The notes under the pieces were generated by a model. It was not told where the DNA came from. It saw nothing but the letters and a program-made list of their open reading frames with translations, and searched no databases. From IMG/VR virus record IMGVR_UViG_2693429700_000009: a DNA stretch of 4,524 bases; one strand, written 5' to 3'. The position numbers and the translations under genes were made by a program. Positions 1 through 4,524 of this stretch are shown here, one piece after another; the first letter of the stretch is position 1; every line of letters starts with the position of its first letter. This DNA comes from a virus (Duplodnaviria > Heunggongvirae > Uroviricota > Caudoviricetes).

Positions 1-561
1 GAGATTGTGGCGCTGGTCCACAGCCACCCCGGTGGTCTGCCCTGGCTGAGTGAGGCCGACCGGCGGCTGCAGGTGCAGAGTGATTTGCCGTGGTGGCTGG
101 TCTGCCGGGGTGAGATTCATAAGTTCCGCTGTGTGCCGCATCTCACCGGGCGGCGCTTTGAGCACGGTGTGACGGACTGTTACACACTGTTCCGGGATGC
201 TTATCATCTGGCGGAGATTGAGATGCCGGATTTTGTGCGTGAGGATGACTGGTGGCGTAACGGTCAGAATCTCTATCTGGATAATCTGGAGGCCACAGGG
301 CTGTATCAGGTGCCGTTGTCAGCGGCGCAGCCGGGCGATGTGCTGCTGTGCTGTTTTGGTTCATCGGTGCCGAATCACGCCGCTATTTACTGTGGTGACG
401 GCGAGCTGCTGCACCATATTCCTGAACAACTGAGTAAACGGGAGAGGTATACCGACAAATGGCAGCGACGCACACACTCCCTCTGGCGTCACCGGGAATG
501 GCACGCATCTGCCTTTACGGGGATTTGCAACGATTTGGCCGCCGCATCGACCTTCGTGTGA
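1..561 (+). CDS. K: Tail tip assembly protein K (gpK-like; JAMM/MPN metallopeptidase motif plus NlpC/P60 cysteine peptidase domain); 5'-partial, true start lies upstream of the window
   Basis: Frame 1 is open from nt 1 to the TGA at 559-561. Translation begins EIVALVHSHPGGLPWLSEAD, which fits the JAMM motif HxHx7SxxD (His codons 19-21 and 25-27, Ser 49-51, Asp 58-60). Downstream are NlpC/P60-type candidate catalytic residues: Cys in HGVTDCYTLF (178-180), His in VPNHAAIY (376-378) and His-His in ELLHHIP (412-417). The sequence matches lambda gpK from memory. The ORF-track start at nt 7 (GTG) is a window-edge artefact. Confidence 0.9.
   Translation, partial: EIVALVHSHPGGLPWLSEADRRLQVQSDLPWWLVCRGEIHKFRCVPHLTGRRFEHGVTDCYTLFRDAYHLAEIEMPDFVREDDWWRNGQNLYLDNLEATGLYQVPLSAAQPGDVLLCCFGSSVPNHAAIYCGDGELLHHIPEQLSKRERYTDKWQRRTHSLWRHREWHASAFTGICNDLAAASTFV
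441..447 (+). promoter_or_regulatory. Shine-Dalgarno-like element for gene I, embedded in the K coding sequence
   Basis: GGAGAGG at 441-447, 11 nt upstream of the I ATG (459). The spacing is slightly long but acceptable, and translational coupling to K is plausible. Confidence 0.5.
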
Positions 562-1130
562 AAACGGGGGCTGAAGCCATCCGCGCACTGGCCACACAGC
601 TCCCGGCGTTTCGTCAGAAACTGAGCGACGGCTGGTATCAGGTACGGATTGCCGGGCGGGACGTCAGCGCGTCCGGGTTAACGGCGCAGTTACATGAGAC
701 TCTGCCTGATGGCGCTGTGATTCATATTGTTCCCAGAGTCGCCGGGGCCAAGTCAGGTGGCGTATTCCAGATTGTCCTGGGGGCTGCCGCCATTGCCGGA
801 TCATTCTTTACCGCCGGAGCCACCCTTGCAGCATGGGGGGCAGCCATTGGGGCCGGTGGTATGACCGGCATCCTGTTTTCTCTCGGTGCCAGTATGGTGC
901 TCGGTGGTGTGGCGCAGATGCTGGCACCGAAAGCCAGAACTCCCCGTACACAGACAACGGATAACGGTAAGCAGAACACCTATTTCTCCTCACTGGATAA
1001 CATGGTTGCCCAGGGCAATGTTCTGCCTGTTCTGTACGGGGAAATGCGCGTGGGGTCTCGCGTGGTTTCTCAGGAGATCAGCACGGCAGACGAAGGGGAC
1101 GGTGGTCAGGTTGTGGTGATTGGTCGCTGA
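459..1130 (+). CDS. I: Tail tip assembly protein I (gpI-like; N-terminal ubiquitin-like/beta-grasp region, Gly-Gly junction, Gly/Ala-rich hydrophobic segment, conserved C-terminal region)
   Basis: ATG at 459 to TGA at 1128-1130, 223 codons. The protein begins MAATHTLPLASPGMARICLYGDLQRFGRRIDL and ends QVVVIGR, which is near-identical to lambda gpI as I recall it (also 223 aa). It overlaps the K 3' end by 103 nt in a different frame, as in lambda. An SD-like GGAGAGG lies at 441-447. Confidence 0.92.
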   Translation: MAATHTLPLASPGMARICLYGDLQRFGRRIDLRVKTGAEAIRALATQLPAFRQKLSDGWYQVRIAGRDVSASGLTAQLHETLPDGAVIHIVPRVAGAKSGGVFQIVLGAAAIAGSFFTAGATLAAWGAAIGAGGMTGILFSLGASMVLGGVAQMLAPKARTPRTQTTDNGKQNTYFSSLDNMVAQGNVLPVLYGEMRVGSRVVSQEISTADEGDGGQVVVIGR

Positions 1131-1148
1131 TGCAAAATGTTTTATGTG

Positions 1149-1169
1149 AAACCGCCTGCGGGCGGTTTT
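1149..1169 (+). terminator. Candidate stem-loop with 3' T-run in the I-J spacer (possible intrinsic terminator, attenuator or RNA stability element; function unproven)
   Basis: AAACCGCC (1149-1156), loop TGCG (1157-1160), GGCGGTTT (1161-1168) form a perfect 8-bp stem with a GC-rich core, followed by T at 1169. It starts 19 nt after the I stop and ends 22 nt before the J start. In a Q-antiterminated late operon it would be read through. Confidence 0.35.
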
Positions 1170-1178
1170 GTCGTTTAT

Positions 1179-1182
1179 GGAG
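1179..1182 (+). promoter_or_regulatory. Shine-Dalgarno element for gene J
   Basis: GGAG at 1179-1182 with an 8-nt spacer to the ATG at 1191. A second GAGGA at 1186-1190 abuts the start codon and is too close to act as the SD. Confidence 0.6.
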
Positions 1183-1190
1183 CGTGAGGA

Positions 1191-4100
1191 ATGGGTAAAG
1201 GCAGCAGTAAGGGGCATACCCCGCGCGAAGCGAAGGACAACCTGAAGTCCACGCAGCTGCTGAGTGTGATCGATGCCATCAGTGAAGGGCCGGTTGAAGG
1301 TCCGGTGGATGGATTAAAAAGCGTGCTGCTGAACAGTACGCCGGTGCTGGACAGTGAGGGGAATACCAACATCTCCGGCGTCACGGTGGTGTTCCGGGCA
1401 GGTGAGCAGGAGCAGACACCGCCGGAAGGTTTTGAATCCTCCGGCTCCGAGACGGTGCTGGGTACGGAAGTGAAATATGACACGCCGATCACCCGCACCA
1501 TCACGTCGGCAAACATCGACCGTCTGCGCTTTACCTTCGGTGTGCAGGCACTGGTGGAAACCACCTCAAAGGGGGACCGGAATCCGTCGGAAGTCCGCCT
1601 GCTGGTTCAGATACAGCGTAACGGTGGCTGGGTGACGGAAAAAGACATCACCATTAAGGGCAAAACCACCTCGCAGTATCTGGCCTCGGTGGTGGATAAC
1701 CTGCCGCCGCGCCCGTTTAATATCCGGATGCGCAGGATGACGCCGGACAGCACCACAGACCAGCTGCAGAACAAAACGCTCTGGTCGTCATACACCGAAA
1801 TCATCGATGTGAAACAGTGCTACCCGAACACGGCACTGGTCGGCGTACAGGTGGACTCGGAGCAGTTCGGCAGCCAGCAGGTGAGTCGTAATTATCATCT
1901 TCGCGGGCGCATTCTGCAGGTGCCGTCGAACTATAACCCGCAGACGCGACAATACAGCGGTATCTGGGACGGAACGTTAAAACCGGCATACAGCAACAAC
2001 ATGGCCTGGTGTCTGTGGGATATGCTGACCCACCCGCGCTACGGCATGGGGAAACGTCTTGGTGCGGCGGATGTGGACAAATGGGCGCTGTATGTCATCG
2101 GCCAGTACTGCGACCAGTCAGTGCCGGACGGCTCTGGCGGCACGGAGCCGCGCATCACCTGTAATGCGTACCTGACCACACAGCGCAAGGCGTGGGATGT
2201 GCTCAGTGATTTCTGCTCGGCGATGCGCTGTATGCCGGTATGGAACGGGCAGACGCTGACGTTCGTGCAGGACCGACCGTCGGATAAGGTGTGGACCTAT
2301 AACCGCAGTAATGTGGTGATGCCGGATGATGGCGCGCCGTTCCGCTACAGCTTCAGCGCCCTGAAGGACCGCCATAATGCCGTTGAGGTGAACTGGATTG
2401 ACCCGAATAACGGCTGGGAGACGGCGACAGAGCTTGTGGAGGACACGCAGGCCATTGCCCGTTACGGTCGTAACGTCACGAAGATGGATGCCTTTGGCTG
2501 TACCAGCCGGGGGCAGGCACACCGCGCCGGGCTGTGGCTGATTAAAACAGAACTGCTGGAAACGCAGACCGTGGACTTCAGCGTGGGTGCCGAAGGGCTT
2601 CGCCATGTGCCGGGCGATGTCATTGAAATCTGCGATGATGACTATGCCGGTATCCGCACCGGCGGGCGCGTGCTGGCGGTAAACAGCCAGACCCGGACGC
2701 TGACGCTCGACCGTGAAATCACGCTGCCAGCCTCCGGCACCACGCTGATAAGCCTGGTTGACGGGCAGGGGAGTCCGGTCAGCGTGGAGGTTCAGTCCGT
2801 CACCGACGGCGTGAAGGTGAAAGTGAGCCGTGTTCCTGACGGCGTTGCTGAATACAGCGTATGGGGGCTGAAGCTGCCGACGTTGCGCCAGCGCCTGTTC
2901 CGCTGCGTGAGTATCCGTGAGAACGACGACGGCACGTATGCCATCACCGCCGTGCAGCATGTACCGGAAAAAGAGGCCATCGTGGATAACGGGGCGCACT
3001 TTGACGGCGACCAGAGCGGCACGGTAAATGGTGTCACGCCGCCAGCGGTGCAGCACCTGACCGCCGAAGTCACCGCAGACAGCGGGGAATATCAGGTGCT
3101 GGCGCGCTGGGACACACCGAAGGTGGTGAAGGGGGTGAGCTTCCTGCTTCGCCTGACCGTGGCAGCGGATGACGGCAGTGAGCGGCTGGTCAGCACGGCC
3201 CGGACGGCGGAAACCACATACCGCTTCACACAACTGGCGCTGGGGAACTACAGGCTGACAGTCCGGGCGGTAAATGCGTGGGGACAGCAGGGCGATCCGG
3301 CATCGGTATCGTTCCGGATTGCCGCCCCGGCAGCGCCTGTCACTATTGAACTGATACCGGGGTATTTTCAGATAACGGCGGTCCCGAAACTGGCTGTATA
3401 TGACCCGACGGTACAGTTTGAGTTCTGGTTCTCGGAAAAGCGGATTACCGATATCAGGCAGGTTGAAACCACAGCCCGCTATCTTGGTACGGCGCTGTAC
3501 TGGATAGCCGCCAGTATCAATATCAAACCGGGCCATGATTATTACTTTTATATCCGCAGTGTGAACACCGTTGGTAAATCGGCATTCGTGGAGGCTGTCG
3601 GTCAGCCGAGTGATGATGCATCAGGCTATCTGGATTTTTTCAAAGGAGAGATAGGGAAAACCCATCTGGCTCAGGAGTTGTGGACGCAGATTGATAACGG
3701 TCAGCTTGCGCCTGACCTGGCTGAAATCAGGACGTCCATTACGGATGTCAGCAATGAAATCACGCAGACCGTCAATAAGAAACTGGAAGACCAGAGTGCG
3801 GCAATTCAGCAGATACAGAAGGTTCAGGTTGATACAAATAATAACCTGAACAGCATGTGGGCTGTGAAGCTGCAGCAGATGCAGGACGGACGCCTTTATA
3901 TCGCGGGTATTGGTGCCGGTATTGAGAACACCTCTGACGGCATGCAGAGTCAGGTGCTGCTGGCGGCGGACAGGATTGCGATGGTTAATCCTGCGAATGG
4001 CAACACAAAACCGATGTTTGTTGGTCAGGGCGATCAGATATTCATGAACGACGTGTTCCTGAAACGCCTGACGGCCCCCACCATTACCAGCGGTGGAAAT

Positions 4101-4524
4101 CCACCGGCATTTTCCCTGACACCGGACGGAAAGCTGACCGCTAAAAATGCGGATATCAGTGGCAGTGTGAATGCGAACGCCGGGACGCTCAACAATGTCA
4201 CGATTAACGAGAACTGTCGGGTTCTGGGAAAACTGTCCGCGAACCAGATTGAAGGCGATCTCGTTAAAACAGTGGGCAAAGCTTTCCCCCGGGACTCCCG
4301 TGCACCGGAACGGTGGCCATCAGGGACCATTACCGTCAGGGTTTATGACGATCAGCCGTTTGACCGGCAGATTGTTATTCCGGCGGTGGCATTCAGCGGC
4401 GCTAAACATGAGAGAGAGCATACTGATATTTACTCCTCATGCCGTCTGATAGTGCGGAAAAACGGTGCTGAAATTTATAACCGTACCGCGCTGGATAATA
4501 CGCTGATTTACAGTGGCGTTATTG
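1191..4524 (+). CDS. J: Tail tip host-specificity protein J (gpJ-like central tail fibre); 3'-partial, runs off the window end after about 1111 codons
   Basis: ATG at 1191 is preceded by GGAG at 1179-1182 with an 8-nt spacer. I translated the frame codon by codon to nt 4523 and found no stop. The N-terminus [34 protein letters not shown] and long internal stretches (for example [45 protein letters not shown] and [46 protein letters not shown]) match lambda gpJ from memory. Lambda J is about 1132 aa, so only a short C-terminal piece is missing. The ORF is absent from the supplied track, presumably because it has no in-window stop. Confidence 0.95.

Follow-up and report, generated by a model that had tools for sequence, protein, structure and literature searches.

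The K-I-J segment and its relation to phage lambda

The window, by which we mean the whole stretch of DNA analysed here (4,524 nucleotides), carries the 3' part of gene K, gene I and a gene J that is cut by the window end, all on the plus strand (Table 1). Frame 1 of positions 1-561 is open from the first base, begins with EIVALVHSHPGGLPWLSEAD and closes with the TGA at 559-561. The J frame runs without a stop codon up to 4523, and its product matches the Pfam families FNIII-A_GpJ, Phage-tail_3, Ig_J, Ig_J_second, Phage_Tail_Tip and Ig_GpJ_C. In a megablast search with positions 1-1200 of the window, 266 phage records were matched in all, and the identity to the K-I-J region of phage lambda was 97.7%, with window position 1 aligned to position 14315 of the lambda record J02459. 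Of 5426 complete Escherichia coli genomes, 4661 contain related sequence, but an exact copy of the window occurs in none (best match 98.2%). Rfam returned no match within the window, a sigma-70 promoter-like site at 179-207 scored at chance level, and minus-strand open reading frames beneath K (143-364 and 361-597) were unsupported and set aside.

Table 1 Features of the window (positions in nucleotides from the first base; residue numbers of full-length proteins unless marked otherwise)
Feature	Position	Strand	Basis and remarks
Gene K, 3' part (codons 62-247 of 247 and TGA stop)	1..561	+	Translation
JAB/MPN+ (JAMM) metalloprotease domain, C-terminal part	1..132	+	Pfam Prok-JAB, fragment residues 1-44 on profile positions 67-113 of 114
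JAMM motif H-x-H-x7-S-x2-D, HSHPGGLPWLSEAD	19..60	+	Read from sequence; H68, H70, S78, D81
NlpC/P60 (MEROPS C40) papain-like cysteine peptidase domain	148..489	+	Pfam NLPC_P60, fragment residues 50-163
Catalytic Cys, C121 (fragment C60), in 'TDCYT'	178..180	+	96% conserved; D120 before it 97%
Catalytic His, H187 (fragment H126), in 'PNHAAIY'	376..378	+	98% conserved; aligns to the His of Spr/MepS 'RHVGIY'
Third triad residue, His, H199 (fragment H138)	412..414	+	98% conserved; aligns to the His of Spr/MepS 'FVHAS'
Gene I, 223 residues	459..1130	+	Pfam Lambda_tail_I, 98.5 bits, residues 14-97; PDB 8iyk_I
Out-of-frame overlap, 103 nt, of the C-terminal helix of K with the first 34 codons of I	459..561	+	Open reading frame list
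ThiS/MoaD-like beta-grasp (ubiquitin-like) domain of gpI, residues 14-96, ending IVPRVAG96	498..746	+	Profile search
Predicted gpI cleavage region, G96-A97-K-S-G-G101	744..761	+	Exact bond inferred
Gene J, encoding the tip attachment protein (central tail fibre); 1111 codons up to the window end, where it is truncated	1191..4524	+	Pfam

The first 183 nt of K lie upstream of the window, as seen in six public E. coli contigs that are identical to it over 1-561 (ADJW01000019 over 1-1695) and that we used as proxies for the upstream K sequence. In these contigs K encodes 247 residues and starts 5 nt past the L stop codon, and the 61 residues that precede the window begin MTQTESAILAHARRCAPAESCGFVV, so that window residue n corresponds to full-length residue n+61. 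The window fragment is identical to lambda K at 179 of 186 residues (96%), and the seven substitutions all lie outside the positions that reach 90% conservation in the family. The product of gene I is identical to lambda gpI at 221 of 223 residues (99%), and in the K/I overlap four nucleotide differences from lambda alter K residues and none alters an I residue. All ten contigs retrieved with the exact window gpI protein have the gene order L-K-I-J. On its closeness to lambda K and on this gene order, with L directly upstream in the identical contigs, we assign the window gene to the lambda gpK (TAPK) family, with which it has the gene order, the K/I overlap and the two domains in common.

To gauge conservation we scanned 1.84 billion cluster representatives, which gave 2777 relatives of K, and took the figures below from 103 full-length representatives at 34-61% identity. 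Among them, conservation reaches 90% at no more than 22 positions, and all eight catalytic residues described below belong to this set. A K homologue was found in 1765 phage records, with at least 80% of the two-domain protein covered in 1721. PDB searches found no solved structure of K or of a close relative. An AlphaFold2 model of the 247-residue homologue P0006, which is 96% identical to the window fragment, had a pLDDT of 97.1 and a pTM of 0.91, the latter indicating that the two domains of K form one rigid unit.

Two peptidase domains in gene K

The window opens within the JAB/MPN+ domain, in which the JAMM motif codons for H68, H70, S78 and D81 (H7, H9, S17 and D20 of the fragment) occupy nt 19-21, 25-27, 49-51 and 58-60. 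The same pattern, H.H.{7}S..D, arose by chance in 452 of 200,000 shuffles of the 186-residue fragment (0.2%). Scored alone against Prok-JAB (PF14464), the fragment reaches 21.2 bits, short of the gathering score of 25, since part of the domain lies beyond the window edge, whereas the full 247-residue K of the identical contigs scores 52.6 bits over profile positions 3-113 of 114 and passes. The glutamate that completes the JAMM site is E19 in 'PAESCG', which all six identical contigs place about 127-129 nt upstream of the first window base. As the window itself lacks the first 61 K codons, we rely on these contigs for E19, and they strongly suggest that the window's own molecule encodes it as well. 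Among the 103 relatives, E19 is conserved at 96%, H68 at 97%, H70 at 96%, S78 at 91% (with threonine in a further 6%) and D81 at 97%.

Comparison with solved proteins points in the same direction. A profile search against PDB sequences matched 2kks (1.2e-14) and 5lda (6e-12), and E19, H68, H70, S78 and D81 of K align to the equivalent residues of 2kks, 2kcq and 5lda. In Foldseek, the N-terminal domain of the P0006 model matched PfJAMM1 (5lda_A) with a TM score of 0.67 and an rmsd of 2.5 Å over 107 columns, and further matches were 5ld9, AMSH, CSN5 and Rpn11; 5lda is PfJAMM1 together with the ubiquitin-like SAMP2. Judging by the complete E...HxHx7SxxD signature and the modelled MPN fold, the N-terminal domain of K is of the MPN+ rather than the MPN- type, with zinc binding and activity predicted. 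K thus has its fold and its E...HxHx7SxxD site in common with the archaeal JAMM/MPN+ desampylases (Pyrococcus furiosus JAMM1, 5LD9/5LDA), which cut after the C-terminal Gly-Gly of ThiS/MoaD-type ubiquitin-like proteins. Identity to these enzymes is about 24%, and K differs from them in being fused to a second peptidase and in its proposed substrate, which would be a linear fusion within gpI and not an isopeptide conjugate. Against the NCBIfam model for desampylases of the Haloferax type (NF041370), K scores 29.9 bits with a cutoff of 130. K and the desampylases belong to a common superfamily and probably employ a common chemistry, and K is not an equivalog of them.

The remainder of K is occupied by an NlpC/P60 domain, for which the window fragment scores 47.6 bits against NLPC_P60 (PF00877; gathering score 23, E 1.8e-12) over the full profile (1-105 of 105) and full-length K scores 46.7 bits, again past the gathering score. 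C121 sits at the start of helix 121-131 in the P0006 model, and the spacing of 12 residues between H187 and H199 equals that of Spr/MepS, which a profile search against PDB sequences also matched (Spr, 1.4e-6). H200 (H139 of the fragment, nt 415-417) is conserved at 92% and aligns to an alanine in MepS; on this alignment the triad is C121, H187 and H199, and H200 is excluded. Foldseek neighbours of the C-terminal domain are MepS (7v6s_A, TM 0.69, and 8xud), Acd33800 (9ubf, 0.67-0.68) and LytE (8i2e_B, 0.68), with TM scores in the range 0.63-0.69. The papain-like fold and the His-to-His spacing are therefore those of MepS/Spr and other NlpC/P60 (C40) endopeptidases. K differs from MepS/Spr in sequence (17-20% identity), in the length of the insert between Cys and His (66 residues, compared to about 51), and in being cytoplasmic in context and free of a lipoprotein signal. 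Against the NCBIfam family TIGR02219 (phage_NlpC_fam, putative phage cell wall peptidase), K scores 25.1-25.7 bits with a cutoff of 81.9; it is related to this family (the RcGTA g14 type) and stands outside it.

These results bear on a sequence-only reading of the window, which had placed the JAMM motif at nt 19-60, the candidate catalytic cysteine at 178-180 and histidines at 376-378 and 412-417, all of them exact coordinates. Its JAMM motif turned out to belong to a genuine JAB/MPN+ domain, by Pfam, by the profile match to solved JAMM proteins and by the fold match to PfJAMM1, and the glutamate that it expected upstream of the window is found there as E19. Its set of NlpC/P60 residues holds for the codons at 178-180, 376-378 and 412-414, which make up the triad; the codon at 415-417 is conserved and lies outside it. 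Recovery of the upstream sequence, here from the identical contigs, and a structure prediction, both of which it had proposed, bore out the two domains, as full-length K passes both Pfam thresholds and the P0006 model matches both the JAMM and the NlpC/P60 folds.

Compared with GGAGGCGTATTTCC, the lambda record J02459 (1982) lacks one G between 14266 and 14267 (GGAGGC^TATTTCC), and its K frame is broken upstream of the annotated ATG at 14276; an ATG at 14133 opens a different frame, which encodes the N-terminal JAB segment with 'PAESCG'. The annotated K of J02459 has 199 residues because of this missing G, compared to a true length of 247 residues. Eight other lambda-type records have the G and an open K of 247 codons, five of them being lambda or lambda-derived (KT232076, lambda imm21 OM418625, DE3 and DN1) or the close relative HK630. 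An insertion '14266_14267insG' figures among the listed differences between J02459 and commercial lambda DNA. The 199-residue K is nevertheless still annotated in DE3, HK630, DN1 and OM418625 and in UniProt-style records, and a review gives gpK as '199 in total'. Such a protein is without the catalytic glutamate and half of the JAB fold, and its Prok-JAB score of 23.3 bits is under the threshold. Our literature search found no paper on the missing G at lambda 14266/14267 and its consequence for K. J02459, a widely used reference, and the annotations derived from it thus hide the catalytic glutamate and can mislead analysis or mutation of 'gpK residues 1-199'.

The partner protein gpI

[quoted passage not shown] With a profile of the N-terminal domain, the best PDB hits outside the family were 4n6e_B (ThiS/MoaD family, E 0.11) and 1v8c_A (MoaD-related, E 0.32), both of them weak; they span the gpI domain completely, with their C-terminal 'P.VAG(G)' placed on the 'VPRVAG' of gpI. 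The assignment to the ThiS/MoaD type was also reached by Iyer et al. 2006 (PMC1779556). A search with an 11-sequence alignment gave near-identical E. coli prophage loci only, and diversity was checked in four distant K loci (34-38% identity to P0006). An I homologue lies downstream of K in all four, and P92, G96, G101 and Q104 are invariant across the I homologues of these loci. The association of the two proteins extends to gene fusions, for PHROG families exist both for K-I fusions and for JAB-I fusions, the latter including one that lacks an NlpC/P60 domain (phrog_35166), an architecture also given in Table 1 of Iyer et al. 2006 (PMC1779556). The K-I fusions P0028, P0096 and phrog_28576 led us to consider a programmed -1 frameshift from K into I, which we rejected as unsupported: the K frame contains no heptamer of the type X XXY YYZ, and each fusion entry forms a cluster with a single member.

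The two-domain architecture of K and the hypothesis that it processes gpI are already known, since both were published by Iyer, Burroughs and Aravind in 2006 (PMC1779556). These authors described a neighbourhood of TAPK (JAB and NlpC/P60), TAPI (ubiquitin-like) and TAPJ, to which the arrangement in the window is exactly alike with no difference in kind, and they proposed that the JAB domain frees the ubiquitin-like domain by a cut at its C-terminal glycine. Current annotation by NCBI and Pfam likewise carries both domains, under the names 'C40 family peptidase' and 'Mov34/MPN/PAD-1 family protein'. The sequence-only reading had brought up this proposal for gpI, and a conference report of October 2025 (PMC12908700) goes further: according to its meeting summary, gpK was shown experimentally to cut off the N-terminal domain of gpI, and the cleavage is credited to a 'deubiquitinating domain' of gpK. 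A literature search found no full paper behind this report.

Data on lambda virions are consistent with such processing. Mass spectrometry of virions did not detect gpK (PMC10721106), and no tail-tip map resolves it, whereas gpI is visible by cryo-EM, with density only from residue 101 (PMC11101478) or, elsewhere, only for residues 134/135-223. The C-terminal part of gpI is thus now seen in the mature tail, outside which Iyer et al. had placed TAPI. The unseen N-terminus could reflect disorder instead of removal, and mass spectrometry does not settle its presence in the virion, as the supplement reports a single gpI peptide (9.9% coverage) with no position given.

K as a candidate maturation enzyme of the tail tip

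In order to rationalise these findings, we combined our own observations (the two domains identified in K with their intact, conserved sites, the conserved adjacency of K and I and the ThiS/MoaD-like end of gpI) with what the literature provides on gpI cleavage and its timing, on the absence of gpK from virions and on gpI being visible from residue 101. [quoted passage not shown] In the JAB/MPN+ domain, E19 would act as the general base, zinc would be bound by H68, H70 and D81, and S78 would provide the stabilising serine. After the docking of gpI into the J/L complex, the JAB/MPN+ domain would recognise the ThiS/MoaD-like N-terminal domain of gpI and cut at or just after the conserved C-terminal glycine of that domain (G96 to G101). 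The rest of gpI, with its hydrophobic helices and plug domain, would remain in the lumen of the J/L tip, and K and the released ubiquitin-like domain would leave and be absent from the virion. The NlpC/P60 domain (C121/H187/H199) is predicted to be catalytically competent as well. That the JAB rather than the NlpC/P60 domain is the cutter of gpI, and which bond is cut, are points that we infer.

The roles of the two domains might be distributed differently, with the NlpC/P60 domain cutting gpI and the JAB domain merely binding the ubiquitin-like domain or acting on another substrate. Such an arrangement would agree with the conservation of C121, H187 and H199 (96-98%) and with the packing of both domains as one rigid unit. 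The JAB zinc site is, however, as conserved as the NlpC/P60 triad (91-97% among the same 103 relatives), which argues against a mere binding module, and in the JAB-I fusion families mentioned above gpI is joined to a JAB domain with no NlpC/P60 domain present. Moreover, the nearest solved relatives of the N-terminal domain cut after the C-terminal glycine of ThiS/MoaD-type proteins (5lda), the meeting summary names the deubiquitinating domain of gpK, and the homologue in the gene transfer agent RcGTA is an NlpC/P60 protein that has no JAB domain. We hold a gpI-cutting NlpC/P60 domain to be improbable. That homologue, g14 (Rcc01697) of Rhodobacter capsulatus, lies in a K-like position between the hub gene (L-like) and the central fibre gene (J-like), and it invites a different view, in which K would chiefly be a peptidoglycan hydrolase. 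In line with the proposal made for g14, its NlpC/P60 domain would be carried along or set free during infection and open the cell wall to let DNA in, any connection to gpI being secondary. The solved neighbours of the C-terminal domain are all peptidoglycan endopeptidases (MepS, CwlO, LytE and Acd33800) and there is a weak match to TIGR02219; g14 degrades peptidoglycan in vitro (PMC7296036), and the peptidoglycan-cutting enzyme of lambda has not been identified (PMC11101478). On the other hand, g14 has 150 residues and no JAB domain and may sit inside the particle, whereas gpK is absent from lambda virions, which speaks against an entry function in that phage. Deletion of g14, which is needed for tail formation, also abolishes tails (PMC7296036), so that an assembly role is indicated for g14 too. 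The TIGR02219 score of K is, at 25 bits, far under the cutoff. K also seems to have neither a signal peptide nor an evident route of export. Taken together, we regard an entry hydrolase as quite improbable for lambda-type K.

A still more sceptical view would have the motifs arise by chance or persist as relics in a catalytically dead protein that acts as a scaffold or chaperone in tip assembly. It could draw on the fact that the biochemical activity of K lacks full publication and on a few representatives that have lost catalytic residues, such as P0133, which carries both E19K and C121G. This view is very hard to reconcile with the rarity of the JAMM motif in shuffled sequences, with both domains passing their Pfam thresholds and with the eight catalytic residues lying within only 22 positions that are conserved at such a level at 34-61% identity, as dead sites would not be expected among the few conserved positions; we consider it extremely improbable.

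A speculative reading, which we regard as rather unlikely, gives the NlpC/P60 half of K a substrate of its own. The most interesting candidate is the tape measure protein gpH, which it may convert to gpH* by a cut near the glycine-rich C-terminus of gpH; a peptidoglycan-related activity in the cytoplasm or periplasm would be an alternative. If true, K would carry out two maturation steps and set the timing of two different cuts during tail assembly. Among cultured phages, no fewer than 1,721 genomes contain the two-domain K, and K and gpI would represent a case, in a bacterial virus, of ubiquitin-like/deubiquitinase logic used as an assembly checkpoint, which is of general interest.

The K gene in the lambda record and in related entries

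In J02459, the 1982 phage lambda reference record, K is split because one G is missing between 14266 and 14267, and the JAMM Glu is absent from the 199-aa lambda K annotated there. Eight other lambda-type records, re-sequenced lambda and lambda derivatives among them, carry this G together with a K gene of 247 codons; several of the eight still copy the 199-aa annotation.

Databases also record fusions of K with I, of JAB with I and of L with K, both as proteins and as families. Each K-I fusion from E. coli forms a cluster of one and has the look of a gene that was frameshifted or mis-assembled; the window's K frame contains no slippery heptamer. In P0133, a representative of the K homologues with 50% identity to K, the substitutions E19K and C121G remove both the JAMM Glu and the NlpC/P60 Cys. 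A prophage copy undergoing decay may account for this, or a joint loss of the two sites.

Locations of the features and database entries discussed
Feature	Location or entries	Context
Split K segment	J02459 (L001) 1319-1465 = lambda 14133-14279	upstream of window position 1
Strong hairpin	window 1137-1185	inside the 60-nt I-J spacer
Fusion entries	proteins P0028, P0096; PHROG families phrog_28576, phrog_35166, phrog_30	

The I-J spacer and the J gene

The spacer hairpin has the core AAACCGCC-TGCG-GGCGGTTT, with a T-rich run after it, an energy of -21 kcal/mol and a z-score of -2.1. It looks like a terminator; a simple terminator scan did not pick it up, and Rfam returned no match for it.

Downstream, the J gene is mosaic (window 1696-4524). 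One contig is identical to the window through 1695 and divergent beyond that position, and an ungapped comparison of the window J against that of lambda likewise falls apart, suggesting that J has indels or an exchanged distal part. The window end cuts J inside the receptor-binding domain (positions 1-85 of 135 in the Ig_GpJ_C profile).

The start of gene I and its overlap with K

Public records hold two versions of the gene I start, ATG 459 giving 223 aa and GTG 558 giving 190 aa, the latter overlapping the K stop as GTGA. [quoted passage not shown] M1 and M14 are both candidates for the true start. Two further solved gpI homologues, the "putative tail assembly proteins" PDB 9l9p_A and 25vf_9 (199-200 aa), include the ubiquitin-like N-domain at the level of their deposited sequences.

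Within the K/I overlap (window 459-561), the window differs from lambda at four nucleotides (497, 503, 527 and 539), all of which alter K (A227E, R229H, Y236C and V241A, lambda to window) and none of which alters gpI. Judged by these substitutions, the I frame seems to be more constrained than the K frame across this stretch.
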